A DNA stretch of 64,000 bases from Gammaproteobacteria bacterium (GTDB taxonomy: Bacteria; Pseudomonadota; Gammaproteobacteria; GCA-001735895): contig JBLIOG010000001.1 of assembly GCA_047639625.1 (NCBI GenBank), positions 169 to 64,168 of the forward strand, in the 5' to 3' direction. Below the pieces are notes generated by a model. It searched no databases and was not told where the DNA came from. It worked only from the letters and a program-made list of their open reading frames with translations. Both the position numbers and the translations under genes were made by a program. Numbering within the stretch: the stretch's first letter is position 1; every line of letters begins with the position of its first letter. Of the stretch, positions 363 to 27,161 are shown piece by piece.

Positions 363-623
363 ATGTTATTAATTGCATGTCCTTTTTGTGGACCGAGAAA
401 TGAGAGTGAGTTCGTTCACGGTGGGCCTGTAAAACCTCGTCGCCCCGATCAACCCGATAAAATGGGTGATCAGGAATGGGTCGAATACCTAACGGTGCCC
501 CCCAACCCAATTGGACCGGTCGATGAATATTGGTGGCATGTTCGGGGTTGTGGTAAATGGGTAAAAATCAGTCGCGATACACGGACCCACGAAATAATTG
601 CTGCACCTGGAGATGATTCATGA
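363..623 (+). CDS. soxD: Sarcosine oxidase delta subunit
   Basis: 86 aa with a CPFCGPR zinc-ribbon-like N-terminus typical of SoxD. Its end overlaps soxA by 4 bp, consistent with the soxBDAG order. Confidence 0.85.
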   Translation: MLLIACPFCGPRNESEFVHGGPVKPRRPDQPDKMGDQEWVEYLTVPPNPIGPVDEYWWHVRGCGKWVKISRDTRTHEIIAAPGDDS

Positions 624-3560: not shown

Positions 3561-4061
3561 ATGAGTTACGACGTCAATATTCAACGCCAGGGTATATCCA
3601 CCTTAATTGAAATTCAGGGTAAGTCCGATTCGGTTTCCGACTGGATCAGCGGATTATTTAATCATTTACCTGTGTCACCCAATACAGCCGTCAGTAAAGG
3701 TCATTCGTCAATTTATTGGCTCGCACCCGAAAAATGGTTAATTCGGGGGCCAATTGAACTGGAATCGGAGCTTCAGCAATCAGTCCGGTTAGAAACTGCA
3801 CCCATTGATATGAGTATCGTGCTTGTCAGCGATACCCTCACTTTTTTTAGCATTGAAGGCGAAGATGCCGCGCAAATCATGGCTATCGTGAGCCCACTCG
3901 ATACTCATCAAACCCAGTTCCACAAAAATGCCGGTACTTATACCGAAGCTTTCGGATTAAAGTCATTCATATTACGAAGCCGGAATGGTTTCGAAGTAGC
4001 GGTTGAGTCGAGTTTTGCGGATATGTTTGAAACTTATTTTTCTAAAATATGTGCCGATTGA
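3561..4061 (+). CDS. soxG: Sarcosine oxidase gamma subunit
   Basis: 166 aa ORF starting 2 bp after the soxA stop. Position and size fit SoxG. Confidence 0.7.
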   Translation: MSYDVNIQRQGISTLIEIQGKSDSVSDWISGLFNHLPVSPNTAVSKGHSSIYWLAPEKWLIRGPIELESELQQSVRLETAPIDMSIVLVSDTLTFFSIEGEDAAQIMAIVSPLDTHQTQFHKNAGTYTEAFGLKSFILRSRNGFEVAVESSFADMFETYFSKICAD

Positions 4062-5056
4062 GCGATCATCGCCAGGGTTTCTCCACGCTCTATCAAACCT
4101 CGATTGTTATGGGCAAAAATAACACCCGAACAGGGAAAATATAAGGGCACAGAATTACGCTCCGGTTCTTCAATAAAGTGGATAAAACCAGCAGGATCAC
4201 CCGCGTTTACTTTGTCCCCAATATTGAAATTCCGATCAAACAATCCCGCTGACGGTGCCAGATAATTCTGTTCAGGTGCATTAAATTCCACCCACTGTGA
4301 GTCAGAACTCTCTTCGGCAATCGATTGACTGATAATTCCCAAATGATGAAGGCATCGTCTAATAGCGCGCTCGGCAAAGTCTGTCATTGCTGGATCACAA
4401 CCACCACCGCCACCCAACTCAGAAGCGATCATCGATACACCGTGTCGACCCGCCGCTGCATTTACCGAACGATTGTCATTTTGGGCCCCTGCTAACCAAA
4501 CGTATGGCGCCGCAAAAGCCCCGGCTAATGCTTTGTTTCTATGACCCACTTCGGTTGAGTTATCAACGCTGGTTAAAACACAGGGTGCGAAAATTGAGGC
4601 TTTACCACCACTGTGCAAATCGATCACGGCATCGCACTGAGATATGAGTATATCTTCAATAAACTGAGCCAGCATATGCGTCGGTCCTGCATCCATATCC
4701 CCAGGAAACGCCCGATTCATGTTGACTTGATCCAGCGGCGAAACCCGACTTGAAGACATCAACGCAGGTGCGTTCAGGGCTGGAATAATCAGGACTCTAC
4801 CTTTTATCTCATCCAGACTGAGAGTCTGCACAAGACGCATAAGAGCCGCGGGACCTTCGAATTCGTCGCCATGAACTCCTCCAGTTAAAAGCAGGGTTGG
4901 GCCCTCTGCATTAGAAAGACAAATAATGGGAACCGGATAAACGCCTAATGGCCGGCGATTATCCGACCACTTAATTTGCAAATCGCCAACCTGGCGTCCT
5001 TGTTGTTCCAGGTCTATTGTCATTCTAATTCGAGTAGGTGTTGCCGTTTTTATCAT
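4034..5056 (-). CDS. Succinylglutamate desuccinylase/aspartoacylase (AstE/AspA) family deacylase
   Basis: 340 aa carrying the GGVHGDEFEG zinc-binding motif of the AstE/AspA/DoeB family. Its 3' end overlaps soxG convergently. Confidence 0.7.
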   Translation of the reverse strand: MIKTATPTRIRMTIDLEQQGRQVGDLQIKWSDNRRPLGVYPVPIICLSNAEGPTLLLTGGVHGDEFEGPAALMRLVQTLSLDEIKGRVLIIPALNAPALMSSSRVSPLDQVNMNRAFPGDMDAGPTHMLAQFIEDILISQCDAVIDLHSGGKASIFAPCVLTSVDNSTEVGHRNKALAGAFAAPYVWLAGAQNDNRSVNAAAGRHGVSMIASELGGGGGCDPAMTDFAERAIRRCLHHLGIISQSIAEESSDSQWVEFNAPEQNYLAPSAGLFDRNFNIGDKVNAGDPAGFIHFIEEPERNSVPLYFPCSGVIFAHNNRGLIERGETLAMIAQSAHILEK

Positions 5057-5083
5057 TATTTTCTCAATGAATCATTATTTAAC

Positions 5084-5298
5084 AAGGTGATTAGCAAGCA
5101 CACTCAGTTCAAGCAGAGAATTAAACATCAAAGTATTGAATTCAAATGGGTTGTATTGCCTGCTTGTTATACACTTTTCCGCACCTAAATGATCAGTGTA
5201 TTCCATAGTGACTCCTCTATGGGGTACGAAACCATTGAACATGATTACCGCGAGTGACAATTAATTGTATCCTACTGAATTGTGTTGCTAATCACCTT
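5084..5298. repeat. Repeat family 1, copy A: MITE-like element with terminal inverted repeats
   Basis: Inverted repeats AAGGTGATTAGCAAGCACAC (5084-5103) and GTGTTGCTAATCACCTT (5282-5298). The core TTTTCCGCACCYAAATGATSASTRTATTCCATAGTGACTCC is shared with the copies at 13255-13486 and 16146-16503. Encodes the small ORF MEYTDHLGAEKC... on the minus strand with a GGAG Shine-Dalgarno. Confidence 0.6.
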
Positions 5299-5373
5299 TA
5301 ATAATTGAACTTATTATTAATCACAACAAACCATAATATTCCTGGAATTGAGTTACGGTAATTCACATCATGT

Positions 5374-6516
5374 GTGATATGGTACTTTAACCCTCTTACA
5401 GACACCATGCACCGAAAAATCACCTCCATGTCAGCTTTACGCCCCAAAAAAAGTATTGAGAAAATTAAGGCACATATGCTGTTGGCAGAAACTGATCAAT
5501 ATCCAGCCCCGCGAATTTTGCTGAATTCGAACGAAAGTGCTTTTGGCCCTTCAGTTAACGCTGTCAATGCAGCGACTGCTGCGGCTGCCGATTTATTTCG
5601 ATATCTCGAAAATCCGGCATCCCGTTTAGCCCCTGCTCTGGCTCAACGTTATCAGGTTGATCAAAAACGATTAACGGTCGGCAACGGATCAGATGATTTA
5701 CTGGCACGGTTAGCAAGGGTCTATCTCGAGCCCGGAACTGAAATGATCCGCAGCAAAAATGGTTATCTCAAGGCACCAAACTATGCCTTTGCCAACGGAG
5801 CTGAGCCGATTTCGGTCGAAGACGACGACTTGAAGCCTTCGGTTGATAACATTCTGGCCGCTGTTACTGACAAAACCCGAATGGTCTATCTGGCAAATCC
5901 TGAGAACCCTGCAGGAACCTATTTGAGCGGTTCTGAAATCAGACGATTGCACCAGTCGCTTCCAGGGGAAGTTTTACTCGTACTCGACTGCGCCTATGAA
6001 GAATACGTCGATGCCGAAGATTATGAGTCAGGTCAGCTGTTAGCCAGTATCGCCGACAATGTCGTAATGACTCGAACCTTCTCAAAGATTCACGGACTCG
6101 CGGGCGCCCGGGTTGGCTGGATGCTGGCCGCACCCGAAATCATCGACCTTGTTAATCGCATCGGCTTAACCTTTCCGTTGGCGAGTTGTTCAGTGGCCGC
6201 CGCATTAGCAGCATTGAAAGATAAACATCACCAGAAAACTGTGTTTGAAATAAACCGAAAACTACGCCAGCAATTTTCAGAAAAAATGACCCATGCTGGA
6301 TTAAAGGTTTACCCAAGCCAAACCAATTTCCAGCTTTTGAAATTTGAAAACCCAGACAAAACCGCAATCGGGTGTGAAGACTATTTATTAAAGCGAGGCA
6401 TTGTTATTCGGCGATTGGCTTCTCCGGCTTATCAAGACTGCATTCGGGTAACCATTGGCCTCGAATCACAAATGAAGATAGCCACCGAAGCCATAACGAG
6501 TTATCTCAATGCATAG
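5374..6516 (+). CDS. Class I/II PLP aminotransferase (histidinol-phosphate aminotransferase-like)
   Basis: LNSNESAFGPS N-terminal motif and overall HisC-family architecture. The true start may be an internal Met (MHRK at 5407 or MSAL at 5428). Confidence 0.8.
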   Translation: MIWYFNPLTDTMHRKITSMSALRPKKSIEKIKAHMLLAETDQYPAPRILLNSNESAFGPSVNAVNAATAAAADLFRYLENPASRLAPALAQRYQVDQKRLTVGNGSDDLLARLARVYLEPGTEMIRSKNGYLKAPNYAFANGAEPISVEDDDLKPSVDNILAAVTDKTRMVYLANPENPAGTYLSGSEIRRLHQSLPGEVLLVLDCAYEEYVDAEDYESGQLLASIADNVVMTRTFSKIHGLAGARVGWMLAAPEIIDLVNRIGLTFPLASCSVAAALAALKDKHHQKTVFEINRKLRQQFSEKMTHAGLKVYPSQTNFQLLKFENPDKTAIGCEDYLLKRGIVIRRLASPAYQDCIRVTIGLESQMKIATEAITSYLNA

Positions 6517-6518
6517 CC

Positions 6519-7052
6519 ATGGACAGCACTATGCCTTCTGCTGAAATCTTGTATCCCTCCGGACCTGGCATTATTGCCGAAATCAAAAAGGCAGGCGTTG
6601 AGTTCGTTATCTCTGTCCCTGATATTGTAACCAGCGAAGGTTTACTCTGGCCCCTGTCGAAAGATAATGAATTAAATCTGGTCCGTGTTTGCAAAGAAGA
6701 TGAAGGTGTCTCGATTTGTGGTGCCATGTCCTATAACAACACACGGGCCGTGTTACTCATGCAGCAAACGGGTCTGATGGATTCGCTAAACGCAATTCGA
6801 GCCATAGGAATGGACTATCAACTCCCTATATGCATGATGGTTGGCCTACAGGGTAAAGAACCCGAGCGTAAACCCGCAGAGTCAAATGCCTACGGGGTTT
6901 GGATCATAGAGCCGGTACTAAAAGCGATGGGAATAGAATATCGTCTCATTGAAGAACCCGATGATGTTAATCACATTGCTCAAGATATCGACCGTGCCTA
7001 TCGAAATTCTTCGGTATTCTGCTTCTTAATAGGGCGGTCACCAACACCATGA
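6519..7052 (+). CDS. comD: TPP-dependent decarboxylase alpha subunit (sulfopyruvate/phosphonopyruvate decarboxylase ComD-like)
   Basis: 177 aa with a TPP pyrimidine-binding N-domain. It is 3 bp from the aminotransferase and overlaps the beta subunit by 4 bp, the split arrangement typical of ComDE. Confidence 0.65.
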   Translation: MDSTMPSAEILYPSGPGIIAEIKKAGVEFVISVPDIVTSEGLLWPLSKDNELNLVRVCKEDEGVSICGAMSYNNTRAVLLMQQTGLMDSLNAIRAIGMDYQLPICMMVGLQGKEPERKPAESNAYGVWIIEPVLKAMGIEYRLIEEPDDVNHIAQDIDRAYRNSSVFCFLIGRSPTP

Positions 7053-7612
7053 GACGCGATCATGCTCTGGAAATACTGAAACATCATGTTAGTGATGAAA
7101 TCGTCGTTGCGGTTTATCAAACATTGTTCGACTGGATGGCTATTAATCCACGCGATTTAAATTATGTCGCCACCGGCGCCATGGGTCAGGCTTCTTCGCA
7201 TGGTTTAGGGCTTGCTCTGGCTAATCCTCAAAAAGAGGTTCTGGTTTTTGACGGCGATGGAAGTTTACTGATGAACCTGGGTTCGCTGGTCAGTGTCGCC
7301 AATGCCAAACCTGCTAACTTTCATCACTTTGTATTTGTTAATCGGGTTTATGAAGTGAATGGCGCGCACCCGATACCCGGTGCTGAATCGGTTGATTTTT
7401 CAGCCATGGCATCTGCTGCTGGCTACAAACAATCGGTTTCTTTCAGTAATATCGAAACTTTCGAATCAAACATCAGCGACTTCCTCGCGACACCCGGGCC
7501 ATCATTTGCAGCATTGTATATAGAAGCCGGGGATCCCTATCCGAGGGACTACGATTATATTCACAGCGCCGAGGCGAGGGATAAGTTTAGGCTGGCACTT
7601 GCATCGAGCTGA
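7049..7612 (+). CDS. comE: TPP-dependent decarboxylase beta subunit (ComE-like)
   Basis: 187 aa with the TPP-binding motif GDGSLLMNLGSLVSV...N (GDG-X24-N). Confidence 0.7.
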   Translation: MRRDHALEILKHHVSDEIVVAVYQTLFDWMAINPRDLNYVATGAMGQASSHGLGLALANPQKEVLVFDGDGSLLMNLGSLVSVANAKPANFHHFVFVNRVYEVNGAHPIPGAESVDFSAMASAAGYKQSVSFSNIETFESNISDFLATPGPSFAALYIEAGDPYPRDYDYIHSAEARDKFRLALASS

Positions 7613-8489
7613 ATTCTGTCTCGACCAACTCCAGAAATTCGTTCGCGACCGCAGTCATTGATTTTTGACGCGACCAGATTAAACAGCCGTTAAAACCAAT
7701 ATTGAGTGAAAAAGGTGCTGAAGATACTTCTTCTCCCGACCCGAATGAAGACCCCATCGAGACAATAATTGAAACGCCCAGCCCCTGTGCGACTAATCGA
7801 CAGATGGCATCGGTTGTTCGGGCTTCATACTTCAGGCTACGATCAACACTCGATTTTTTAAAAATATCATCCACTTCAAACCGAAACTGTGAATCGGGCA
7901 TATAGGAAACAAAACTTTCACCGGCAAGATCTTCCGGAGTAACCACGGCTTTACCTTCAAGTCGATGGCCAGGCGGGAAAACACAAATCGATTCTGTGTT
8001 CGTTAAAGGGTGACTGTTAACAGACGGATTGGCCAGGTTCGCCGGCGCTATGCCGAAATCAAAATTTTGCGAGACCATCCATTCGATTGCAACGTCGGTA
8101 GACTGGATTTCCAGTGATATCATTGCGTCTGGCTGCTTCTCGGAGAATTTACGAATGAGCTGTGGCGCGATTAACGTTGAAAATGCAGGTGTTGCGATCA
8201 ATCGCAATTGCGCATGTTTGAAATTCTTGATGGCGGTCGCGGTATGTTTGATTTGCTCAAGGCCACTCAGAGCCCGTCGTACTTCTTCAACCAGTAATAA
8301 CGCTTCCGGGGTCGCTTTCAAATTTCGACCGGAACGGGTAAACAATCGAAAACCAACCTGGCTCTCCAAATCCGATATCAAACGGCTGACGGCCGGCTGC
8401 GAAATATTCAGCATTCGAGCTGATTCGGTAACCGTACCGGTCTGTACGACCGTTTTGAAGGCGTCAATCTGGCGAAAAGTAATTTTCAA
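7587..8489 (-). CDS. LysR-family transcriptional regulator
   Basis: N-terminal HTH FRQIDAFKTVVQTGTVTESARMLNISQPAVSRLISDLE plus a C-terminal substrate-binding domain. Confidence 0.85.
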   Translation of the reverse strand: MKITFRQIDAFKTVVQTGTVTESARMLNISQPAVSRLISDLESQVGFRLFTRSGRNLKATPEALLLVEEVRRALSGLEQIKHTATAIKNFKHAQLRLIATPAFSTLIAPQLIRKFSEKQPDAMISLEIQSTDVAIEWMVSQNFDFGIAPANLANPSVNSHPLTNTESICVFPPGHRLEGKAVVTPEDLAGESFVSYMPDSQFRFEVDDIFKKSSVDRSLKYEARTTDAICRLVAQGLGVSIIVSMGSSFGSGEEVSSAPFSLNIGFNGCLIWSRQKSMTAVANEFLELVETEFSSMQVPA

Positions 8490-8501
8490 ATGATTATTCC
8501 A

Positions 8502-9584
8502 TCACTCGTTCGATTTCTCAGCTTTAATCCGAGCGGCCAGTTTCTTACGAAACATTTTTGAACCAATATCAAGCCGTAAATCCAGATTACCCGAACGGTT
8601 TTTGGACATACCCCGATGAACCGCTTCAAGGATAACCCGGTCTTCTTCAAATGCACCGCGCGCACCTTCATTCAGTTTTGCACGCGTTACTTCGTTATCG
8701 CCATCGGTATTGTAATTCTGAAACCAGTGGTACCGGGTATTTTCATGATCAATTGGCGTTATGAAGTGGTAGGACCGCATTCGATAACTGCCATCGGGTA
8801 AATCATTATCATTTCCGCCATGTCCTGATGGAGCATAACTACTCATATTAATCGCGATCGACGGCATAACCGCCTCGTAATACTGAAGACGATCGACCTT
8901 ACCTGAAAACGGCAACATGTCAGCATAGTAGGGCGGTGGATCAATATCATTAATCCAACGTGATACCAACACACCCGTATCGGTATCCTCGATTTTCAGC
9001 GCCACATCGTCGGTACCGGCAGAGGCAAACGAAGACTGATGAACCCATGCGACATGCGAAGGGTCGAGTAAATTATCGACCAGGTACAGATAATGGCATC
9101 GACATTCGATCATGCCACCATCGGTTAAACCCCAATGAGGATTATCGTAATCAGGCACGGATAAAATGTGGTTTTCATCGGCCAACTCAGGATCACCCAT
9201 CCAGATCCAGATTAGCCTGTACTTTTCGATGACCGGATATTGTCGAACCCAGGCATTGCTGGGGATTTTGCACTGTGTTGGTGATTCTACACATTTCCCT
9301 TTATGATCAAACTGCATACCGTGATAACCACAATGGACGACATCTTCAATCAGCGTTCCCATCGAAAGCGGTAATTTCCGATGCGGGCAGGCATCTTCCA
9401 GCGCAACCGGAAAGCCGGTGGAATGCCGGTACAGAAGAATATCTTCACCAAGTAACCGGACGGATTGCAGGTTCTCACCTAATGCATCAGATCGAATCGC
9501 AACATACCAGGCGTTTTCGAGAAAAAGGGAATCCCGGTTAATATAATTTGGACTGATACGCGCCATAACACTCTCGCAGGACAT
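8502..9584 (-). CDS. Rieske [2Fe-2S] non-heme iron oxygenase alpha subunit, VanA-like
   Basis: Rieske motif CPHRKLPL...CGYHGMQF and a VanA-type mononuclear-iron region (DNLLDPSHVAWVH). 360 aa. Confidence 0.8.
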   Translation of the reverse strand: MSCESVMARISPNYINRDSLFLENAWYVAIRSDALGENLQSVRLLGEDILLYRHSTGFPVALEDACPHRKLPLSMGTLIEDVVHCGYHGMQFDHKGKCVESPTQCKIPSNAWVRQYPVIEKYRLIWIWMGDPELADENHILSVPDYDNPHWGLTDGGMIECRCHYLYLVDNLLDPSHVAWVHQSSFASAGTDDVALKIEDTDTGVLVSRWINDIDPPPYYADMLPFSGKVDRLQYYEAVMPSIAINMSSYAPSGHGGNDNDLPDGSYRMRSYHFITPIDHENTRYHWFQNYNTDGDNEVTRAKLNEGARGAFEEDRVILEAVHRGMSKNRSGNLDLRLDIGSKMFRKKLAARIKAEKSNE

Positions 9585-9726
9585 ATAATATTTTCTAAAC
9601 CTGGACGCATGATATCATTGACAAAGCTATAGGTGTTGCGCAAACTGAATCCATTATTGAGTGTTTTATTCAATGTTTGCTCAATAGGTTCCAAAGATAA
9701 AAAATAAATAAGGAGGGGCCTGATCT

Positions 9727-10587
9727 GTGTCTTTAGACACCAGAACTGATTCGTACGATTTAGAAAAGCGTCGACGTCCTGTCGAAGTTTTCAGCCTGCC
9801 TCGTTTCTTTCAAATCGTTAGCCAAATCGGTTGGGCTATTCTGACCTTTGCAATCATCGGCTGGTTAATATGGAAAGGTGCATTGGCAATGGAGTACAAC
9901 TGGCAGTGGTATCGTGTCAGCCCCTTCTTTTATCGAATCATCGATGACGAACTAATCTTTGGACCACTTTACTGGGGGCTGATACAGACCCTGAAACTAG
10001 CCTCTGTTGCCGGAATTCTGGCGATCATAATCGGGTTCTTAACCGCCTTTGCGCGTATGTCGAATTCACGCGCTGGTGGTACTATTGCAACCTGGTATCT
10101 CGAAGCAATACGTAATACCCCGCTGATTGTTCAGTTATTTTTATTCTATTTTGTACTTGCGCCCATTTTAGGCATAGACCGATTCTGGTCCGGTGTGCTG
10201 TGTCTTGCATTCTTTGAAGGCTCTTTCGCCGCAGAGATTATTCGGGGTGGAATTCAAGGTGTTGATCGAGGTCAATTTGAAGCCGGTGATGCGATCGGGC
10301 TAACCACCTTTAACAAATACTGGCACATCGTCATACCGCAATCCATGCCTTTAATTTTACCACCCTTGACCGGTTTGCTGATTTCCCTGATTAAACATTC
10401 AGCCATCGTCAGTGTCATTGCCGTTTCCGAGCTGACAACCACAGGTTTGAATTTGATTTCAGATACCTTTATGGCATTCGAAATCTGGTTCATTATTGCA
10501 GGCATCTATCTAGTACTGACCATTTCGCTTTCTATCGGCGTCGGTCAACTGGAAAAGAAGCTCAACGTTACCCGAACGAGTAAATAA
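9727..10587 (+). CDS. Polar amino-acid ABC transporter permease (His/Glu/Gln/Arg/opine family)
   Basis: GTG start with an AAGGAGG Shine-Dalgarno. EAIRNTPLIVQLFLFYF permease signature and multiple TM segments. Confidence 0.85.
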   Translation: MSLDTRTDSYDLEKRRRPVEVFSLPRFFQIVSQIGWAILTFAIIGWLIWKGALAMEYNWQWYRVSPFFYRIIDDELIFGPLYWGLIQTLKLASVAGILAIIIGFLTAFARMSNSRAGGTIATWYLEAIRNTPLIVQLFLFYFVLAPILGIDRFWSGVLCLAFFEGSFAAEIIRGGIQGVDRGQFEAGDAIGLTTFNKYWHIVIPQSMPLILPPLTGLLISLIKHSAIVSVIAVSELTTTGLNLISDTFMAFEIWFIIAGIYLVLTISLSIGVGQLEKKLNVTRTSK

Positions 10588-10608
10588 ATCCTAAGGAGGA
10601 CAACACTC

Positions 10609-11421
10609 ATGACCATTAGTAAAATTTTTAAAACCTTAACAATGGCCGCTGCGATGCTGACGGTTTCAGGCGCTGCTTCAGCAGACCTGCTTACCGATAT
10701 TCAGAAACGTGGTGTTATGAAAGTCGGCATGGCAACTTTTGTTCCCTGGGCGATGCGTGACAAAAATGGAAACCTGATCGGTTTTGAAATCGATGTCGCC
10801 ACTAAAGTTGCCGAAGACATGGGTGTCAAAATCGAATTTGTTCCGACCGCCTGGAGCGGAATCATCCCCGCTTTGATCGCGAAGAAATTCGACCTGATCA
10901 TCGGTGGTATGTCGATTACTCCCCAACGTAATCTAACCGTGAACTTCACTGTTCCTTACGCGCATTCAGGGCAGCAAATGGCTGCTAATACAAAGTTGGC
11001 CAGCGGATTTGATTCGTTGGAAGATTTTAATAAGTCAAACGTTACTATCGCTTGCCGACGTGGTGCTACTCCCTGTAAAACCGCAAAAGATTTTTTCCCG
11101 AAAGCAACCGTTCGTCGATTTGACGACGATGCACAGGCTTTTCAGGAAGTTGTTAACGGTAACGCGCATGGTATGCTTTCCAGTGCTCCCAAGCCCCGTT
11201 TCTGGTCTGACGCTTATCCAGGCAAGGTATTCCTGCCTTTTGGTGAGAAAAACCTGACCAGAGGTGACGAAGCATTCGCAATGCGTAAAGGTGATCACGA
11301 TGCGCTTAACTTTTTCAGCAACTGGATTACCGTTAATACCAGTAATGGCTGGATCGGCAAAACGCATAATTACTGGTTCCAGGACCAATCTGCGTGGAAA
11401 GATATGGTTGCGCCTCAGTAG
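10609..11421 (+). CDS. Polar amino-acid ABC transporter substrate-binding protein
   Basis: Signal peptide MTISKIFKTLTMAAAMLTVSGAASA, family-3 SBP fold. AAGGAGG Shine-Dalgarno. Confidence 0.85.
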   Translation: MTISKIFKTLTMAAAMLTVSGAASADLLTDIQKRGVMKVGMATFVPWAMRDKNGNLIGFEIDVATKVAEDMGVKIEFVPTAWSGIIPALIAKKFDLIIGGMSITPQRNLTVNFTVPYAHSGQQMAANTKLASGFDSLEDFNKSNVTIACRRGATPCKTAKDFFPKATVRRFDDDAQAFQEVVNGNAHGMLSSAPKPRFWSDAYPGKVFLPFGEKNLTRGDEAFAMRKGDHDALNFFSNWITVNTSNGWIGKTHNYWFQDQSAWKDMVAPQ

Positions 11422-11509
11422 TTAAATAGATAGTTGATTAGAATTATGGGGCTGGAAGTGGAATTTTCGCAACCAGCCCCTGATTTTTCACCATCAATCA
11501 CTAAATAAA

Positions 11510-12415
11510 TTGGACAGAAACTCTCCCCCACCTGCAAAACCAAAACAGCCTCTTACGATCGTTGATTACCTGGTTTATGGTTTTGTCGCCCTGTTTATTT
11601 TTTATGCGGTATACCGGGTTAACGACGTTCTGGTTTACAACTGGAATTGGTCGAGGGTATTTGGATTTCTAGTCAAGTTTGACGAAGAAACTCAGTCCTG
11701 GGTTTCTAATCTGTTACTACAGGGGCTATGGACTACCTTACGACTGGCTGTCTGGGCCACAGTCTTCGCGACCATCGTTGGCGTCGTCATGGGATATTGG
11801 CGCACTTGCCAAAATCTGACACTACGCATCGTCAGCCGTTGCTATGTTGAATTTATTCGCAACTTGCCCCCACTTATTTTTATATTTATTTTTTACTTTT
11901 TTGTATCAAGTCAAATCTTCCCGGCCATGGGCATCGAAGACATCGATGTTGATGGTGCGATTGCATCCAGTGGTGTTTTCGAATTTATGTTTGGTGATCC
12001 GCGTCTTTTTTCAAATTTTCTTGCCGGCATGATCTGTCTGTCGCTTTTCGAGGGTGCCTATATCACCGAGATAGTTCGAGCCGGAATTCAGTCCACCGAT
12101 AAAGGTCAATGGGAAGCAGGAAAAGCTATCGGGTTGTCTCATTTTAATGTGCTGCGCGATATTGTTATCCCACAGGCAGTTAGAAAAATCCTTCCCCCAT
12201 TGGCAGGTCAATTCATTACACTGATCAAAGACTCTGCGATCATTTCACTCATTTCAATTCAAGAGCTGACTTTCGTCGCGACCGAAGTTGCGGCCACAAC
12301 CACGCGTGTTTTCGAAACCTGGATTCTGGTTGGATTTATGTACTTTGTACTTTGTTACAGTTTCGCCGTGTTTTTTGCCTATCTCGAAAGGCGCGCAAAA
12401 CGAAGTCAACGATAA
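11510..12415 (+). CDS. Polar amino-acid ABC transporter permease (second subunit)
   Basis: Paralogous permease carrying the EFIRNLPPLIFIFIFYF signature. Confidence 0.85.
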   Translation: MDRNSPPPAKPKQPLTIVDYLVYGFVALFIFYAVYRVNDVLVYNWNWSRVFGFLVKFDEETQSWVSNLLLQGLWTTLRLAVWATVFATIVGVVMGYWRTCQNLTLRIVSRCYVEFIRNLPPLIFIFIFYFFVSSQIFPAMGIEDIDVDGAIASSGVFEFMFGDPRLFSNFLAGMICLSLFEGAYITEIVRAGIQSTDKGQWEAGKAIGLSHFNVLRDIVIPQAVRKILPPLAGQFITLIKDSAIISLISIQELTFVATEVAATTTRVFETWILVGFMYFVLCYSFAVFFAYLERRAKRSQR

Positions 12416-12428
12416 CCGGATTTCATCA

Positions 12429-13184
12429 ATGTCTGAAAATAATACCTCGCAGCCGCTCGTAGAAATCACAGGATTGTGTAAGTGGTACGGCGATTTTAGT
12501 GCGCTATATGACATAAATCTTAAAGTTGCCCCAGGTGAAAAGGTGGTAGTTTGCGGGCCATCCGGATCGGGTAAGTCCACCATGATCCGCTGTATTAATC
12601 AGCTCGAAGAACACCAGGTCGGCACGATTATGGTTGATGGTCGTGAGGTTAAACCCGGGATGAAACAAATTGAAGAAATACGTCGTGAAGTCGGCATGGT
12701 ATTCCAGAGCTTCAATCTGTTTCCGCATATGTCGGTAGTCGATAATTTAACCATCGGGCCGATGCGTAACAAAGGCATCTCGAAAGCTGAAGCGACCGAA
12801 AGCGCAATGCACTTTCTAGAGCGTGTACACATTGCTGAACAGGCAGATAAATATCCTCCACAACTATCCGGAGGCCAGCAGCAAAGAGTAGCAATTGCCA
12901 GAGCTCTTTGTCTTAAACCCAAGATCATGCTGTTTGACGAGCCAACTTCTGCACTCGACCCGGAAATGATTGCCGGAGTTCTGGATGTCATGATCGAATT
13001 GGCCGAAGAAGGTATGACGATGATTTGTGTCACTCACGAGATGGGATTTGCACGCCGGGTTGCTGACCGTATTGTGTTTATGGATCATGGTGAAGTAGTA
13101 GAAGTTGCTGAACCGGAAGCCTTCTTTTCGAATGCACAAACCGATCGCGCAAAATTATTTTTGAGCCAGTTACTGGCTCATTGA
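12429..13184 (+). CDS. Polar amino-acid ABC transporter ATP-binding protein
   Basis: Walker A GPSGSGKST, ABC signature LSGGQQQRVAIARAL, Walker B MLFDEPTSALD. Start placed at the internal ATG 12429 to avoid overlapping the upstream permease. Confidence 0.85.
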   Translation: MSENNTSQPLVEITGLCKWYGDFSALYDINLKVAPGEKVVVCGPSGSGKSTMIRCINQLEEHQVGTIMVDGREVKPGMKQIEEIRREVGMVFQSFNLFPHMSVVDNLTIGPMRNKGISKAEATESAMHFLERVHIAEQADKYPPQLSGGQQQRVAIARALCLKPKIMLFDEPTSALDPEMIAGVLDVMIELAEEGMTMICVTHEMGFARRVADRIVFMDHGEVVEVAEPEAFFSNAQTDRAKLFLSQLLAH

Positions 13185-13254
13185 TATTGCTAACCCGATC
13201 AAATTACAATTAACTCAGGATATTTTGGGCCGCGGAAATAAGTAGTAACCCCAT

Positions 13255-13486
13255 CTTGTTTGTTTGTTTTTTGACCCAGCTTCTGAGTTGTATTGGCTGT
13301 CTGTTAAACATTTTTCCGCACCCAAATGATGACTGTATTCCATAGTGACTCCCTCCATGGGGTATGTCTCACTTTTGAAGCCCCAAAAGTAAGCAAAATG
13401 GCTCACACCATCGAGAGCGGCCTACGGCTTCCCGTCAAGAGAGTTGCTATAAATTGAGGCCTGCTGAATTATGTTGCTCATCAACA
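13255..13486. repeat. Repeat family 1, copy B
   Basis: Shares the core CATTTTTCCGCACCCAAATGATGACTGTATTCCATAGTGACTCCCTCCATGGGGTA with copies A and C. Small ORF MEYSHHLGAEKCLTDSQYN... on the minus strand. The right arm (CTGCTGAATTATGTTGCTCATCAAC) overlaps the last codons of the amidase gene. Confidence 0.5.
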
Positions 13487-14784
13487 TTATTCATCACCCC
13501 GACCCTTAACTGACCCTCTATCCACTGCGCCGCTGCCAGTAATTTGTCGTCCTGATTAATCGCGCCTACCAACTGAACTGAAAGGGGTAGTCCATTTGGC
13601 CCCTGTCCAAACGGAACCGAAATACAGGGCACCTGTAACAAATTCCAGGCCCGACTGAAAAGAGGATCACCCGTTGCCCCCAGCCCTGCAGGTGCTTCAC
13701 CCGGAGCTGCTGGCGTCAAAATAACATCGGCTTCAAGAAACATAGTTTGTAATATTCTGTTTGCTCTATCTCTCGCCAGGCAGCCATCAACATAGTCTGC
13801 ACGCGAAACTTCCAGACCGGTTTCGAACAAGTCTCGAAACTGAGGGCTAATTTCATCTCGATAATGGTTGTACTCATATACGCGAGACCTCGCCACTTCA
13901 AACGCCATTACTGTTTTTTGATGCTCAGTTAATTCTAGAAATGATTCAGGGCAGGCAAGTTCACCGGTCACAGCGCCCGCATTTGAGAGTTGTTTCATTG
14001 CCCTCTGGCAGACATCACGCATTTCCATCGAACCTTCATTCCAATGGGGACCACGAAACAACGATATTCGTAATGGTCGGTTTTCATGATCAATCGCATC
14101 GGCAGGCTGGCTTTTACACAACACAGAACGTGCGAGTTCAAAGTCTTCAATTTGTCTGGCCAAAAAACCCAGAGTATCCAGACTTGGTGATAAAGACATG
14201 ATCCCCTGTAGATCAAAACTTCCATGACTGGCCTTATATCCTGGAATACCACAATAAGCAGCCGGCCGGATTAACGACGCAGCGGTCTGTGAGCCGAATG
14301 CAAACGGTAGCATACAATCCGCAACTGCCGCTGCTGAACCGCTGGATGATCCACCAGGCGTATGTTCCAGCTTATTCGGATTCGCTGTTTTTCCCGGTTT
14401 GAAATAGGCAAACTCGGTGGTCACTGTTTTACCGACCAGAATGGCACCCGCCTGCAGGAATAATTCGACACAACTGGCATTACGCCCAGCACTATATCCC
14501 TTGTAAAACTCTGTGCCCCATTCAGTCGTGAATCGCTCGGTGTCGATGATATCTTTCGCGGCGAAAGGTATCCCGTGAAGTGCTCCCGTAATTTCCTTTC
14601 GATCAGCCCGTCGGGCAGATTCCAACGCGGCCTCTTCATCAATATCATTAAATGCACCGACATCAATTTCCCGCTGCTGGACGCGATCAAGACAATCTGT
14701 CATCACTGCTTCGGCAGAAATTTCTCGGGTAGAAATTTTCCGCGCTAGTTCGGCCATCCCTAATTCATTCAGTTTTGTTTTCAC
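13447..14784 (-). CDS. Amidase (amidase-signature family, GatA-like)
   Basis: 445 aa with the AS motif GGSSSGSAAAVA and the catalytic Ser-cisSer-Lys region. Confidence 0.85.
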   Translation of the reverse strand: MKTKLNELGMAELARKISTREISAEAVMTDCLDRVQQREIDVGAFNDIDEEAALESARRADRKEITGALHGIPFAAKDIIDTERFTTEWGTEFYKGYSAGRNASCVELFLQAGAILVGKTVTTEFAYFKPGKTANPNKLEHTPGGSSSGSAAAVADCMLPFAFGSQTAASLIRPAAYCGIPGYKASHGSFDLQGIMSLSPSLDTLGFLARQIEDFELARSVLCKSQPADAIDHENRPLRISLFRGPHWNEGSMEMRDVCQRAMKQLSNAGAVTGELACPESFLELTEHQKTVMAFEVARSRVYEYNHYRDEISPQFRDLFETGLEVSRADYVDGCLARDRANRILQTMFLEADVILTPAAPGEAPAGLGATGDPLFSRAWNLLQVPCISVPFGQGPNGLPLSVQLVGAINQDDKLLAAAQWIEGQLRVGVMNNVDEQHNSAGLNL

Positions 14785-14787
14785 TAT

Positions 14788-15993
14788 TTAATGACCATCC
14801 AGTTCGGCAATCGCCGCTTCAAAAACGGTAGCCGGCATATCGTAAATACCTCCACCCAAACGGCCTACAGCCCCCTCGTTATCGAGTATGCCCAATGCGA
14901 TCACCGGTCCACGCCCATAAGCGACTACAGATCGAGCAGATATCCCCAGTCGACAATTAAGTGATCCAAACGCCGGATGCTGACCCATCAATAGCGACTG
15001 CGTTCTAAGGTCAAAATCTTCGGGTAAAAATTCGCCAAGCGCATCGAGTTGTCCGGGAGATAAACGAATAGCCATGGCACCAAGACCCAACCCTTCCACT
15101 ACCGCACTATCTCCAATCGCTGGCAAGCCTCGACTGACAGGCAAATCGACATCAAATCGACCAACCGGAGCGGTTGCACTAGAAGAAAACCAATGTCCGG
15201 GGAGAGCTGAAATCTGAATCCCCGTTTCAACACCGTTACCACCCGCAGCAATAACAAAACTGGAGCCGCCAACCCCGGCAGCACGGGTCATAATGCATTT
15301 GCTGGCAGCCATCCACAAATTAAGAAACAGGCTGGGGGACCGTCCTATAAAATCACGGGTTTTTTCATCAAACTGCTTACCGGGTATCGCCTGTTCAACT
15401 TTCGCCATTAATAATTTTGTGGCATGCGGCGTTCGGCCATGACAGTCATCACCTTCTGCTAACCCGGCAGCGGCTAATGGCAACATTTCGTATGAACTTG
15501 TTAGTGCTTCGTTCAATAAATCAGCAAAGAAACTGTTCAACCAACGTATATGATTCAATACTGATTCAGATCTTAAACCCAATCTGAGAGACGGTGCGCC
15601 TCCTCCATTAATAGGAGCATATATTTTGATATCAGATTGATTTTCATCAATAACCCGATGAAGTGGCATAGAGGCACTGACGACGGCCGCCAGCGGCGTA
15701 ACGACTGAATGATCCTGAGCCGGTTTAAGTTGAATTTCTCCAGCCTTTATCATCGATTCGGCCTGGCCGAAGTTCTTTGCCAAACCTTCAAATACTGCCG
15801 CCACGCAGGCCGAATTTAAGATCGGCATAGAAATAGCATCAATAGATTTAAACGCTGGCCCAGCATGTAATAAAACATGTTCGGGGATCTTGAAAGCATG
15901 AGCACCCGATTCGATTCCATCCCAAACCGGATCGGCTAATAGAGCCTGTTCGAATGAAAGTTGATCGGCATTATCTAAAACAGAATTACTCAT
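14788..15993 (-). CDS. Uncharacterized protein, DUF1116/YlbE-like (co-operonic with amidase)
   Basis: 401 aa. Motifs LLHAGP, VVSASMPL and IGDSAVVEGLGLGAMAI resemble the E. coli YlbE family as I recall it. Stop lies 3 bp from the amidase start. Confidence 0.45.
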   Translation of the reverse strand: MSNSVLDNADQLSFEQALLADPVWDGIESGAHAFKIPEHVLLHAGPAFKSIDAISMPILNSACVAAVFEGLAKNFGQAESMIKAGEIQLKPAQDHSVVTPLAAVVSASMPLHRVIDENQSDIKIYAPINGGGAPSLRLGLRSESVLNHIRWLNSFFADLLNEALTSSYEMLPLAAAGLAEGDDCHGRTPHATKLLMAKVEQAIPGKQFDEKTRDFIGRSPSLFLNLWMAASKCIMTRAAGVGGSSFVIAAGGNGVETGIQISALPGHWFSSSATAPVGRFDVDLPVSRGLPAIGDSAVVEGLGLGAMAIRLSPGQLDALGEFLPEDFDLRTQSLLMGQHPAFGSLNCRLGISARSVVAYGRGPVIALGILDNEGAVGRLGGGIYDMPATVFEAAIAELDGH

Positions 15994-16145
15994 CTGATGG
16001 CTCCTCGGGGGACGTTACAATTTATATAGGGCTCAATAAATCACGAAAAATTAATTTCCTGAAAACTTTATATTGTCAAACAGTGTTAAATATTATCCTA
16101 ACCGGCTTATTGCATAAAGGAGCATTAGGGCTACGGAAATAAATA

Positions 16146-16503
16146 AAGTGAATAGCAACAATATTCAGCGGGATACAATCAATTGTCACCCATGTGCAAT
16201 CGTTTCGCACCCTTAATGCTACTTCATTTCATAGCAGGGCTCTCGGCAGGGTACGCCTTACTTTTCCTACAGCAGAAAAGTAAGCAGGGTTGCTCCTGCG
16301 CAGAGCCTGCCCCGTGAGCACAGCGAATGCTTTGGGTATCCCTGCGTCCACGACATGCCGTTCATCATAGAGGGAGTCACTATGGAATATAGTCATCATT
16401 TGGGTGCGGGAAAATGTTCAGCAAACAGATCATGTAACCCAGTTGAATTCTATACATGGATATTTAATGTCCAGCTTGAACTGGGTGTTCTTCCCAATCA
16501 CTT
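16146..16503. repeat. Repeat family 1, copy C (opposite orientation, carrying a nested family-2 repeat)
   Basis: Ends AGTGAATAGCAACAAT (16147-16162) and TTCCCAATCACTT (16491-16503) match the copy-A inverted repeats. Core GAGGGAGTCACTATGGAATATAGTCATCATTTGGGTGCGGGAAAATG. Small ORF MEYSHHLGAGKC... on the plus strand, upstream of the TMADH-like gene. Confidence 0.55.
16215..16335. repeat. Repeat family 2 copy nested inside family-1 copy C
   Basis: GCAGGAGCA...CTGCCGAGAGCC blocks are shared with 21585-21750 and 61375-61600. Contains a perfect 10-bp hairpin CTTACTTTTC-N8-GAAAAGTAAG. Confidence 0.45.
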
Positions 16504-16636
16504 AAAGTGTTATCCGATCTTGCTTGTTGTCCCTTAAACTTCTACGTATACGACTGCCCTGTCATCATGGGCGAGACAGTATTAAGATGGTTACTTATTC
16601 CAGAAACAATGTTAATACGAAGGCAAGATACAAACT

Positions 16637-18706
16637 ATGAGTGAACGAGATCCACGATACGACGTTCTGTTTGAACCCGTTAGAATTGGCCCAGTTACGG
16701 CCCCTAATCGATTTTACCAGGTGCCACACTGTACTGGCCTTGGCTGGCTTCGACCTCGCACCGTTGCTCAGGTCCGCGGAATGAAAGCCGAGGGCGGTTG
16801 GGGTGTTGTCTGCACCGAATACTGTTCGATTCATCCGGCTTCGGATGACTTGCCTCATCCTTATGCGTCGCTCTGGGATGACGGTGACATCAAGGCACAC
16901 CGGCTAATGACCGACGCCGTACATGAACATGGTTCGCTGGCTGGCGCAGAGCTCTGGGTTGGCGGCGCACGATCAACTAATCTGTTTACTAATGAAGTTT
17001 CGATGGATGTCGCCCATATGCCGAATTCAATTGGCATTCCGTATCAGACCCGGGCGATGGATCGATCCGATATTCGTGAATTACGGCGCTGGCATCGAAA
17101 TGCTGCCTTGCGGGCAAAAGCAGCAGGCTTTGATATCGTTTATGTCTACGCCACGCATCACTATCTTTTATCTCACTTTTTATCCGCTGAGACCAATACT
17201 CGAACCGATGAATATGGCGGTTCACTTGAAAACAGGGTTCGACTCATTCGTGAATTAATCGAAGAAACAAAAGATGCGGTGGGCGATACCTGTGCTGTTG
17301 CGGTCAGATTTTCTGCCGACCAAACCAAAAATGGGAGCGGTGATCCGATTATTGGTGAACACCGTGACATGATTGAAATGCTGGCTGAACTCCCTGACCT
17401 GTGGGATATCAATATTCAGGACTACTCGCGTGAGATGGGCGTATCCCGGTTTATCAAGGAAGCTTCGCTCGAAGCCTATATGTCTTACGTCAAAACGATC
17501 ACCACAAAACCTGTCGTATCAGTTGGGCGGTTTACCTCTCCGGATACCATGATCTCGCAGATCAACCGCGGAATTGTTGATTTTATAGGTGCTGCAAGGC
17601 CATCCATCGCTGATCCTTTCTTGCCTAAAAAAATAAAAGAAGGTCGACTCGATGAAATTCGAGAATGTATCGGCTGCAATAACTGTTATGTTGGTGACAG
17701 TAAAGGAACACCTTTTCGTTGCACCCAAAACCCGACTATTGGAGAAGAGTGGCGACGTGGCTGGCACCCTGAAAAGATAGCCGCAAAAGGATCTGACTCT
17801 ACAGTTCTGGTTGTGGGTGCCGGACCTGCAGGACTCGAAGCAACTCGAGCACTTGGATTACGGGGATATCAGGTTTTACTCGCCGAAGCGGAACGTGAAC
17901 TTGGAGGACGAGTAACGCGTGAAGCGAAGTTTCCCGGACTAAGCGAATGGGCCCGGGTTCGCGATTATCGAGTACAGCAAATTCAACGCATGCCCAATGT
18001 AGACATTTATCTCGAAAATCGAATGACGTTAGAAGATGTGCTGGCAATGGAGGCCGATCATATCGCGATTGCGACGGGATCGACCTGGCTCAGAGACGGT
18101 AAAGGTTTGCATCACACGGTGGCCATTGAAAATTTTGGCCCTGCGGATCAAATCTTTTCACCTGACGATATTATGGCAGGGCGATTGCCAACAGGATCCA
18201 CCGTTATATTCGATGATGACCACTATTATCTGGCCAGTGTTATTGCCGAAGTTTTGCGTGAGAAAAACATCCCGGTTACTTTGGTAACGCCCGAAGTCAA
18301 AGTATCGGCCTGGTCGGCCAATACCTCTGAGCAGTATCAAATTCACAGAAGACTCGCCGATGTTGGTGTAGAGATTGTCACTGGACACGGCTTAGTTTCA
18401 TTTAATGGCTCACAGGCCGAGATCCAATGTGTTTATACCGATTCACCCAAAACAATTAAAGCTGAAGCCGTTGTCACGGTTACCATGCGAAATCCGAATG
18501 ATGCTTTGTTTCGGTCGCTGAAAAATCATTACGCAACCAATGCCGATACTGGGCCAATTTCACTCAGTCGAATAGGCGACTGCGAGGCACCCTCAATCAT
18601 TGCTGGCAATGTTTTTTCCGGTCATAGATATGCCCAGGAACTCGATGCCGACATTGATGTTGATAAGCGCATTAAATTCGACCGGATATTTTTTAACGAT
18701 GACTGA
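16637..18706 (+). CDS. Trimethylamine/dimethylamine/histamine dehydrogenase-family flavoprotein (OYE-like TIM barrel + 4Fe-4S + ADP-binding domain)
   Basis: 689 aa. N-terminus MSERDPRYDVLFEPVRIGPVTAPNRFYQVPHCTGLG closely matches the TMADH N-terminus, including the Cys for 6-S-cysteinyl-FMN. Also the CIGCNNC Fe-S motif and VVGAGPAGLEA. Confidence 0.8.
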   Translation: MSERDPRYDVLFEPVRIGPVTAPNRFYQVPHCTGLGWLRPRTVAQVRGMKAEGGWGVVCTEYCSIHPASDDLPHPYASLWDDGDIKAHRLMTDAVHEHGSLAGAELWVGGARSTNLFTNEVSMDVAHMPNSIGIPYQTRAMDRSDIRELRRWHRNAALRAKAAGFDIVYVYATHHYLLSHFLSAETNTRTDEYGGSLENRVRLIRELIEETKDAVGDTCAVAVRFSADQTKNGSGDPIIGEHRDMIEMLAELPDLWDINIQDYSREMGVSRFIKEASLEAYMSYVKTITTKPVVSVGRFTSPDTMISQINRGIVDFIGAARPSIADPFLPKKIKEGRLDEIRECIGCNNCYVGDSKGTPFRCTQNPTIGEEWRRGWHPEKIAAKGSDSTVLVVGAGPAGLEATRALGLRGYQVLLAEAERELGGRVTREAKFPGLSEWARVRDYRVQQIQRMPNVDIYLENRMTLEDVLAMEADHIAIATGSTWLRDGKGLHHTVAIENFGPADQIFSPDDIMAGRLPTGSTVIFDDDHYYLASVIAEVLREKNIPVTLVTPEVKVSAWSANTSEQYQIHRRLADVGVEIVTGHGLVSFNGSQAEIQCVYTDSPKTIKAEAVVTVTMRNPNDALFRSLKNHYATNADTGPISLSRIGDCEAPSIIAGNVFSGHRYAQELDADIDVDKRIKFDRIFFNDD

Positions 18707-27156: not shown

Positions 27157-27161
27157 ATAAA

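Follow-up and report, generated by a model that had tools for sequence, protein, structure and literature searches.

A conserved marine gene cluster joining an AllG-like protein to an amidase-signature enzyme

The window analysed here, a stretch of 64,000 nucleotides (nt) from the 86-kb contig Ga0535667_0000122 of a marine gammaproteobacterial metagenome-assembled genome (MAG), carries on its minus strand a gene for an AllG-like protein of the DUF1116/YlbE family (14788-15993; PF06545, E 9.4e-56), whose TAA stop codon lies only 3 nt from the GTG start of a gene for an amidase-signature enzyme resembling malonamidase E2 (13447-14784, minus strand; PF01425, E 1.7e-63). We hold with high confidence that these two genes are members of a conserved operon. 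The association of a Rieske oxygenase, an AllG-like protein (with two small partner proteins) and an amidase recurs in distant lineages, with the AllG branch tied to oxalurate-type catabolism. What the pair does is a more tentative matter. Judged from sequence, it may be the hydrolytic end, at which nitrogen is released, of a conserved catabolic cluster of marine bacteria whose substrate would be an N-heterocyclic amino acid, with the imidazole type as leading candidate and N-methylation possible, a reading that we favour while giving it slightly less than an even chance. The gene families themselves are known, but this branch of DUF1116, which has partners of its own together with a Rieske oxygenase and a coupled amidase-signature enzyme, is uncharacterised and abundant in the sea. 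Neither the cluster nor an amidase-DUF1116 pairing was found described in the searched literature, including that on homarine, on methylhistidine and imidazole acetate, and on hercynine and ovothiol with Rieske enzymes, and the earlier suggestion that the pairing may be new thus stands.

Synteny of the cluster and its division in this genome

Protein families were assigned with Pfam and cross-checked against NCBIfam cut-offs. An initial annotation of this DNA had outlined an island at 7587-18706, interpreted as a locus for the uptake and N-demethylation of an amine. Its observations are confirmed: Pfam agrees with every family named there (LysR, Rieske, ATP-binding cassette (ABC) importer, amidase, DUF1116 and trimethylamine dehydrogenase (TMADH) type), and the 14788-15993 protein in particular scores 189.2 bits on PF06545, for which the cut-off is 27. 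The genes are therefore real, but the bounds were drawn too narrowly, as the conserved cluster reaches left to 4034, and the window lacks the genes that most constantly accompany the AllG-like gene. The interpretation is partly supported.

A first genome scan with a single-sequence query gave 8 loci with close relatives of the AllG-like protein, and an alignment-based metagenome scan gave 80 loci encoding such relatives; others, from Aliiroseovarius, Leisingera and uncultured bacteria, were looked up singly. The related set thus comprises about 90 loci (designated by L-numbers), in which open reading frames (ORFs) were classified against the window proteins. Synteny is conserved across this set, whose hosts are Roseobacters, Arenicellales and other marine Proteobacteria. 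Of the 72 loci that are informative on that side, 44 have the amidase gene immediately downstream of the one for the AllG-like protein. Immediately upstream, in 70 of 75 loci, stands a gene either for a Rieske oxygenase of 453 residues or for one of two small proteins that we call unk209 and unk208. In its canonical form the cluster comprises a LysR gene, a divergent operon for a HisC-like aminotransferase and both subunits, alpha and beta, of a thiamine diphosphate (ThDP) decarboxylase, and a second operon that encodes, in order, an AstE/AspA deacylase, an aldehyde dehydrogenase, the 453-residue phthalate-type Rieske oxygenase, unk209, unk208, the AllG-like protein and the amidase. Frequent additions are genes for an ABC importer of the polar-amino-acid type and for a VanA-type Rieske oxygenase, and the soxBDAG genes, which are often convergent. 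Minority genes in the marine loci encode RidA (4), formamidase-family proteins (7), reductases of the phthalate dioxygenase reductase (PDR) type (5), ferredoxin reductases (5) and 2-hydroxyacid dehydrogenase (12).

Much of this arrangement can be recognised in the window. The zinc deacylase gene, DoeB-like and of the AstE/AspA family (4034-5056, minus strand; PF24827, E 9.4e-33), corresponds to the first gene of the canonical operon, and has orthologues of 44-86% identity in L003, L005, L013, L015, L025, L029, L070 and others. The gene for the HisC-family class I/II aminotransferase (5374-6516, plus strand; PF00155; called start 5407) is found in 18 of the 33 large loci (at least 12 kb), and that for the two-subunit ThDP decarboxylase (alpha 6519-7052, beta 7049-7612, plus strand; TPP_enzyme_C) is always beside it in related loci. 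Because their orthologues belong to the canonical arrangement, the window genes at 4034-7612 are taken to be part of the system. The LysR-type regulator of the cluster (7587-8489, minus strand; Pfam) has orthologues that are 79-91% identical and occupy the same position in L015, L025, L029 and L070. The VanA-type Rieske oxygenase alpha subunit (8502-9584, minus strand; Rieske + VanA_C; called start 9566) does indeed sit, as first noted, beside a complete polar-amino-acid ABC importer, identified by Pfam and NCBIfam on the plus strand (permease 9727-10587, substrate-binding protein SBP_bac_3 10609-11421, permease 11510-12415, ATPase 12429-13184), and both recur with the AllG-amidase pair in related loci. 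Orthologues of the oxygenase (52-70%) adjoin the cluster in L001, L025, L032, L047 and L070, and those of the importer (64-88%) are linked to it in L013, L025, L031, L032 and L079.

The aldehyde dehydrogenase, the 453-residue Rieske oxygenase, unk209 and unk208 have no homologue in the window. A search with unk209 returned a homologue, P0150 (ACI845_002545), which shares the locus-tag prefix of the window MAG, ACI845. It belongs to a second locus, L098 (1-17570 of contig Ga0535670_0004329, from the same sample). There the genes run in the order 462-residue Rieske oxygenase, PotD-type ABC importer, aldehyde dehydrogenase, 451-residue Rieske oxygenase and two unk genes of about 205 residues, in a block that adjoins tig-clpP-clpX-lon. 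Since the missing block is located on a contig with the same MAG prefix, the operon is split over two loci in this genome.

The window also contains three copies of an intergenic segment, with the core GAGGGAGTCACTATGGAATA, that among the DNA examined was seen only in this locus. Copy 1 (5057-5373, minus strand) separates the deacylase and aminotransferase genes, in their divergent promoter region, and copy 2, which is partial (13283-13359, minus strand), lies 3' of the amidase gene. In a mirror-image layout, copy 3 (16150-16500, plus strand) lies between the AllG-like gene and the gene for an amine dehydrogenase of the TMADH superfamily (16637-18706, plus strand; Oxidored_FMN + Pyr_redox_2). 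The amidase-AllG pair is flanked by an inverted repeat of 77 nt, 84% complementary, which copies 2 and 3 make up between them. Copies 1 and 3, which stand sense-upstream of the deacylase and the amine dehydrogenase respectively, share 135 nt at 78.5% identity, with a common promoter-like hexamer pair (TTAGCA-16-TACAAT at 5291-5264 in copy 1). Promoter and terminator scans gave no more matches than shuffled sequence. A structured RNA or riboswitch was considered and rejected, the segment having no Rfam match and folding z-scores of 0 to -0.6; it is more likely a duplicated bidirectional promoter/operator region or a rearrangement scar.

The AllG-like protein, its partners and the accompanying enzymes

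Over its full length (residues 7-397) the AllG-like protein aligns with E. coli AllG/YlbE at 30% identity (BLASTP, E 2e-48). Its AlphaFold2 model, with a predicted local distance difference test (pLDDT) value of 88, has 3clq as the sole Foldseek neighbour in the PDB (template modelling score 0.88-0.90, E ~1e-28), and the family comprises about 1,085 clusters at 90% identity; a search of 1.8 billion representative proteins gave 1,095 clusters. PF06545, formerly DUF1116, is now named AllG by Pfam, 'oxamate carbamoyltransferase subunit'. E. coli AllG, the sole characterised member, is one of three subunits of oxamic transcarbamylase (OXTCase), and acts on oxalurate, which with inorganic phosphate is converted to oxamate and carbamoyl phosphate (PMC11326118). 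The E. coli FdrA/YlbE/YlbF cluster, given in the initial annotation as of unknown function, has since been assigned one, as oxamic transcarbamylase AllFGH (PMC11326118).

The window protein resembles its E. coli counterpart in its full-length homology, its 3clq fold and its location within a cluster for nitrogen-compound catabolism. The partners, however, are different: in place of AllF and AllH there are two unrelated proteins of about 209 residues, a Rieske oxygenase and an amidase-signature enzyme. When the window and about 100 related loci were searched by tblastn with E. coli AllF, AllG, AllH and the carbamate kinase AllK, only AllG gave matches, and no Pfam families of AllF (CoA_binding + Ligase_CoA), AllH (DUF2877) or carbamate kinase were found among the window gene calls. 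The window protein belongs to the AllG family, but the absence of these components implies that it is not an OXTCase subunit, and its chemistry is, we infer, likely to be hydrolytic rather than phosphorolytic. The two proteins also differ in a motif that reads GDDCHGR here and GDEFHQR in E. coli; the longer form GDDCHGRT, which the window protein carries, marks the stand-alone subfamily. A Cys-His catalytic dyad in this motif was rejected as a family-wide feature, the Cys being Phe in E. coli AllG.

The partner proteins unk209 and unk208 are paralogous, each of about 209 residues (in L015 at 8747-10004), and number some 1,040 clusters at 90% identity. Neither has a Pfam or NCBIfam match. The AlphaFold2 model of unk209 (pLDDT 90) is mostly β-strand and has no Foldseek neighbour in the PDB, and the pair may represent a fold without a solved representative. 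A natural fusion, P0414, joins an unk209/208-like domain to an AllG-like one (37% and 33% identity, E 4e-32 and 3e-30), which argues that the unk proteins and the AllG-like protein act as one complex; its locus, L108, also encodes two permeases, of amino-acid and NCS1 type, and three Rieske oxygenases. A fusion of AllF-like and AllG domains was also found, and belongs to the classical branch. Another, in Pseudomonas fluorescens, joins AllG-like and AtzH-like domains, is named 'oxalurate catabolism protein HpxZ' by NCBI, and passes the HpxZ equivalog cut-off. Its locus, L107 (463-12404; GCA_000800615.1), encodes an SBP_bac_3 ABC importer, a MarR regulator, a VanA-type Rieske oxygenase with a VanB-type reductase, a metallo-amidohydrolase, the AllG-HpxZ fusion, an amidase and a hydrolase of the γ-glutamyltransferase (GGT) family. 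With identities to the window proteins of 35% for AllG, 28% for the Rieske oxygenase and 28-38% for the amidase, this locus is, on sequence comparison, an independent and distant repeat of the Rieske, ABC importer, AllG and amidase architecture of the window. The Pseudomonas locus may itself be a complete oxidative pathway for cyclic ureides, and appears to be uncharacterised.

The amidase matches malonamidase E2 over its full length among PDB entries (E 1.7e-67), and alignment with 1obj shows that Lys62, Ser131, Ser155 and the carboxylate-binding Arg158 are all kept. A small carboxy-amide is thus its likely substrate. The Bradyrhizobium japonicum enzyme (1ock) shares with it the Ser-cisSer-Lys triad and Arg158, but is a stand-alone enzyme that serves the malonate metabolism of a symbiont, whereas the window gene is coupled to that of the AllG-like protein inside a large operon. 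The HpxWXYZ system of oxalurate catabolism and the AtzE-AtzG-AtzH type for cyanuric acid also pair an amidase-signature enzyme with a partner, to act on small compounds that contain a carbamoyl or carboxy-amide group. There is a likeness to these in P. fluorescens, where the AllG-HpxZ fusion adjoins an amidase and a GGT-family hydrolase. The window differs in having no HpxZ/AtzH-like domain (none was found by Pfam), no GGT-family gene and no ring-opening amidohydrolase, and its proteins are only 28-38% identical to those of Pseudomonas; the amidase, moreover, falls below the AtzE-type cut-offs (187.5 against 461 bits for NF006631, 164.8 against 425.75 for TIGR02715) and below that of PRK08310. 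In two of the related loci (L091 4256-15176 and L093 672-10002) the genes for unk209, unk208 and the AllG-like protein are followed by five tandem amidase-signature paralogues, 40-50% identical to the window amidase.

Two types of Rieske oxygenase accompany the AllG-like gene. The VanA-type enzyme of the window has intact CxH..CxxH and NxxDxxHxxxxH motifs and, among PDB entries, matches dicamba O-demethylase DdmC best (E 4.9e-38). The 453-residue enzyme of the relatives is nearest phthalate 4,5-dioxygenase and carbazole dioxygenase, and is therefore assigned to the ring-hydroxylating type. The closest relatives of the window, L025 and L032, have the VanA-type and lack the 453-residue enzyme, so that the two may replace each other. 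The oxygenase had been described as having no reductase partner in the window, and this holds: no reductase or ferredoxin family (FAD_binding_6, NAD_binding_1, Fer2, Reductase_C) was found among the gene calls from ~4.8 to 63 kb or in the Pfam-scanned ORFs to their left. Reductases are encoded in related loci, of the PDR type in 5 and of the ferredoxin type in 5, and L107 has one too.

The substrate-binding protein of the importer retains Ser72, Arg77 and Thr121, the carboxylate-binding residues of HisJ. The aminotransferase scores 248 bits on the hisC model TIGR01141 (cut-off 276.6), with histidinol-phosphate or aromatic aminotransferases as its best PDB matches. The ThDP decarboxylase is below the cut-offs of sulfopyruvate decarboxylase ComDE (alpha 92.9 against 147.95, beta 104.6 against 221.5) and of phosphonopyruvate decarboxylase Ppd (107.3 against 312.5), and the deacylase below that of DoeB, the N-acetyl-DABA deacetylase of ectoine degradation (TIGR02994, 213.8 bits against 402.7). 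The LysR protein scores about 70 bits with all of the solved LysR regulators, a comparison that is uninformative. Shortening of an amino acid by a transaminase, a decarboxylase and a dehydrogenase is familiar from the arginine transaminase pathway (AruH/AruI/KauB) and the indole-3-pyruvate route, and the same three-step logic, from an amino acid to an acid one carbon shorter, can be read in the present cluster. A split ThDP decarboxylase, which is rare, is also found in another N-heterocycle catabolic pathway, that for lumichrome, where LumK/LumL form a two-subunit heterocycle decarboxylase (PMC12746152). Here, however, the decarboxylase is co-transcribed with a HisC-like aminotransferase, and there are no P450, xanthine-oxidase-type or catechol-cleavage genes; the lumichrome pathway, suggested by its two-subunit ThDP decarboxylase and Rieske oxygenase, was set aside because the other Lum enzymes are absent.

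A proposed pathway and its rivals

How might these proteins act together? In the pathway that we favour, a nitrogen-rich, amino-acid-like compound with an N-C-N heterocycle would be imported, and its alanyl side chain shortened by transamination, ThDP-dependent decarboxylation and aldehyde oxidation. One or more Rieske oxygenases would oxidise the ring to a product of the acyl-urea or acyl-formamidine type. A complex of the AllG-like and the two unk proteins could then remove an N-C1 unit to leave a carboxy-amide, which the malonamidase-like amidase would hydrolyse to acid and ammonia. The AstE/AspA enzyme would deacylate an N-acyl amino acid, and Sox and the VanA-type Rieske oxygenase would strip N-methyl groups. 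To the hydrolysis of an acyl-urea or amide downstream of a Rieske oxygenase, chemistry to which the natural fusions and the distant Pseudomonas cluster point, we give a shade better than even odds. An imidazole-type, histidine-derived substrate is the leading candidate, suggested by the HisC-like aminotransferase, the ring-type Rieske oxygenase and the acyl-urea link taken together, although as a specific identification it is more doubtful than probable.

A precedent for such chemistry comes from Pseudomonas, in which histamine is degraded by way of N2-formylisoasparagine, converted by an amidase to formylaspartate and by a deformylase to aspartate (PMC8231116, PMC6467879). Compared by description, the imidazole-4-acetate pathway of Pseudomonas (hinABCD, hinFLHG) and the proposed one both proceed from an aldehyde to a heteroaryl-acetate and then to ring oxygenation; in both an amidase removes a carboxamide and an N-acyl-aspartate is deacylated, under LysR control, with a RidA-type protein in some loci. 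The differences are that the oxygenase here is of the Rieske type and not the FAD monooxygenase HinF, that entry is from an amino acid via an aminotransferase and a ThDP decarboxylase, and that the AllG-like and two unk proteins have no stated counterpart. It is possible, though rather unlikely, that these three constitute a new multi-subunit C-N-cleaving enzyme, which would replace AllF/AllH, act directly on the Rieske product and, with the coupled amidase, define a new pathway, abundant in the sea, by which an N-heterocyclic metabolite is mineralised; a methylated histidine derivative (hercynine, methylhistidine or ovothiol) would be an example.

Several observations weigh against the pathway proposed above. 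A histidine-derived route would bypass the Hut pathway for no apparent reason. Sulfo- and phosphonopyruvate decarboxylases, and not aryl-pyruvate decarboxylases, are the nearest kin of the ThDP decarboxylase. In 28 of the 72 loci the AllG-like gene has no adjacent amidase gene, so that the pair is not obligate. In L002 and L007, where it stands between pnp and an SRAP gene, the Rieske-unk-unk-AllG set occurs alone, and within 10 kb there is neither an aminotransferase nor a decarboxylase or deacylase gene; genomes of this kind imply that the side-chain and ring modules may serve different compounds and, together with the 28 loci, they make any single simple scheme doubtful. Support from the histamine-dehydrogenase-like flavoprotein at 16637-18706 is also lessened: three residues that we take to line the histamine pocket, Gln65, Glu79 and Trp267 (3k30 numbering), are all Tyr in the window protein and only the fourth, Asp358, is kept, and its orthologues elsewhere, 76-80% identical, are never found beside the AllG cluster.

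The first of the rival explanations is that of the initial annotation, in which a single island imports and N-demethylates a betaine-, carnitine- or histamine-like quaternary or methylated amine, the Rieske oxygenase, TMADH homologue and Sox enzymes each removing methyl groups and the amidase and DUF1116 protein being accessory. There is something to be said for it, since the VanA-type Rieske gene adjoins the importer, sox genes are adjacent here and in 11 of the 33 large loci (soxA), L009 has an MttB homologue, creatinase and dimethylglycine dehydrogenase-like genes lie 10-15 kb away, and co-regulation of the deacylase and the amine dehydrogenase in this organism is suggested by the promoter-like repeat upstream of each. 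Yet the absence of TMADH-family orthologues from the cluster elsewhere tells against it, as does the most constant Rieske partner, which is of the ring-dioxygenase type, and the substrate-binding protein is of the polar-amino-acid type with carboxylate-binding residues, and not a betaine-binding ProX/OpuAC. Nor would demethylation require the conserved core of aminotransferase, ThDP decarboxylase, aldehyde dehydrogenase, deacylase, AllG-like protein and amidase; for simple betaine or carnitine, all of these that are encoded in the window would go unexplained. We therefore consider this explanation quite unlikely. Still less probable is a route for an asparagine-like compound, X-CH2-CH(NH2)-COOH with X a carboxamide, that would lead through 2-oxosuccinamate, malonamate semialdehyde and malonamate to the amidase, with the AllG-like protein and the Rieske oxygenase modifying X beforehand. 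The kinship of the decarboxylase to enzymes for 3-substituted pyruvates fits well here, the amidase keeps its carboxylate-binding Arg158, and aminotransferase, decarboxylase, aldehyde dehydrogenase and malonamidase-like enzyme make up a complete chemical path. It leaves no role, however, for the most conserved genes (those for the 453-residue Rieske oxygenase, unk209, unk208 and the AllG-like protein); simpler catabolic routes exist for asparagine, and group-B loci keep the aminotransferase and decarboxylase without the amidase.

A purely ureide-based route deserves more weight than either, although we still think it improbable. A cyclic or methylated ureide (hydantoin, creatinine, parabanate, or one derived from a pyrimidine or purine) would be converted by the Rieske oxygenase to an acyl-urea resembling oxalurate or ureidomalonate; the AllG-like protein would remove the carbamoyl group, the amidase would hydrolyse oxamate or malonamate, and the aminotransferase and decarboxylase would serve another compound. 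This accords with the action of E. coli AllG on oxalurate (PMC11326118), with the Pseudomonas AllG-HpxZ fusion and its neighbouring amidase, GGT-family hydrolase and metallo-amidohydrolase, with the NCS1 permease beside the fused protein in L108 and the Liv-type ABC importer and reductase that accompany the module in L008, with the retention of Arg158 in an amidase nearest to malonamidase E2, and with the creatinase gene in the window. It is hard to reconcile with the lack of AllF, AllH and carbamate kinase in the window and about 100 loci, or with the marine loci, in which neither a ring-opening amidohydrolase nor a GGT-like gene was found. The aminotransferase and decarboxylase genes, moreover, are under the same LysR in 18 of the 33 large loci, which argues for one pathway.

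Neighbouring features and significance

The flavoprotein at 16637-18706 was originally taken as a TMADH homologue, and it does have the architecture of that superfamily. It is nearer to histamine dehydrogenase, however (716-718 bits, compared with 648 for 6l6j and 522 for TMADH). Alignment with 3k30, 6de6 and 1djn shows that it retains the cysteine for 6-S-cysteinyl-FMN (flavin mononucleotide), the 4Fe-4S motif CxxCxxC...C and the three-domain architecture, and it thus resembles the histamine dehydrogenases of Nocardioides simplex (3k30) and Rhizobium sp. (6de6) in architecture and cofactor cysteines and differs from them in its pocket. The aromatic bowl of TMADH is also incomplete: Tyr60 remains, Trp264 has become Tyr, and Trp355 aligns with a Gly-Asp stretch. 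Orthologues, 72-81% identical, are common in marine MAGs, in settings (L101, L102 and L104) that include a TetR gene, a second paralogue (51% identity), PotD-type ABC importers or unrelated genes; the AstE/AspA gene that adjoins them shares 24% identity with the window deacylase and is no orthologue of it. In view of these unrelated contexts the gene speaks less strongly for an imidazole substrate. We regard it as an adjacent amine-dehydrogenase module and not as a conserved member of the cluster; it was possibly drawn into the regulon in this organism alone. As an observation in its own right, enzymes of the histamine-dehydrogenase clade whose pocket is rich in Tyr occur widely among marine gammaproteobacterial MAGs, usually as two paralogues accompanied by a TetR regulator and a PotD-type ABC importer.

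At the left end of the window are soxA (620-3559) and soxG (3561-4061) of a sarcosine oxidase of the heterotetrameric type, both on the plus strand and assigned by Pfam, with soxA scoring 1175 bits on TIGR01372 (cut-off 1164); soxB and soxD lie to the left of the window start, and soxB recurs in 16 loci. The soxBDAG genes had been described as adjacent to the island. Although soxA and soxG are indeed present, four further genes, passed over in that description, lie between them and 7587-18706.

To the right of the cluster, at 23215-24502 on the minus strand, there is a disrupted gene of the Oxidored_FMN/TMADH superfamily (ORFs of 163 and 178 residues and out-of-frame pieces), 27% identical to the intact flavoprotein and probably a pseudogene. 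A second block for osmolyte and methylamine catabolism, on the minus strand with a divergent LysR gene, extends over 24923-35986; it encodes a PhzF-like protein, a DAO oxidoreductase, a sulfatase, a creatinase (Creatinase_N + Peptidase_M24), a DAO-FAO_M-GCV_T protein of the dimethylglycine/sarcosine dehydrogenase type, a 406-residue protein of unknown type and an Aminotran_5 protein. A match to the group II intron D1-D4 RNA family RF02003 is located at 37979-38119 on the minus strand (64 bits, gathering score 49). The region 40001-46000 has a G+C content of 0.376-0.416, compared with 0.45-0.48 elsewhere, contains a gene for an SbmA/BacA-like transporter, and is possibly acquired DNA.

Finally, the significance of the cluster extends beyond this genome. 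The gene cluster, so far uncharacterised, is common: the AllG-like and unk209 families each number about 1,000 protein clusters at 90% identity in Roseobacters, Arenicellales and other marine Proteobacteria. Three protein families of the gene cluster have no reaction known in this context, one of them also being without a solved-structure match. Work on DUF1116 has until now been confined to one subunit of the E. coli oxamic transcarbamylase. Cultured carriers of the cluster exist, among them Leisingera sp. ANG-M1, Aliiroseovarius sp. YM-037, Ruegeria atlantica, Cochlodiniinecator piscidefendens, Pararhizobium sp. IMCC3301 and Aquabacter sediminis P-9, so that the question of its substrate is directly testable. 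Were that substrate identified, the largest branch of DUF1116 outside the enterobacteria would gain a function, and the turnover of marine dissolved organic nitrogen a missing route.

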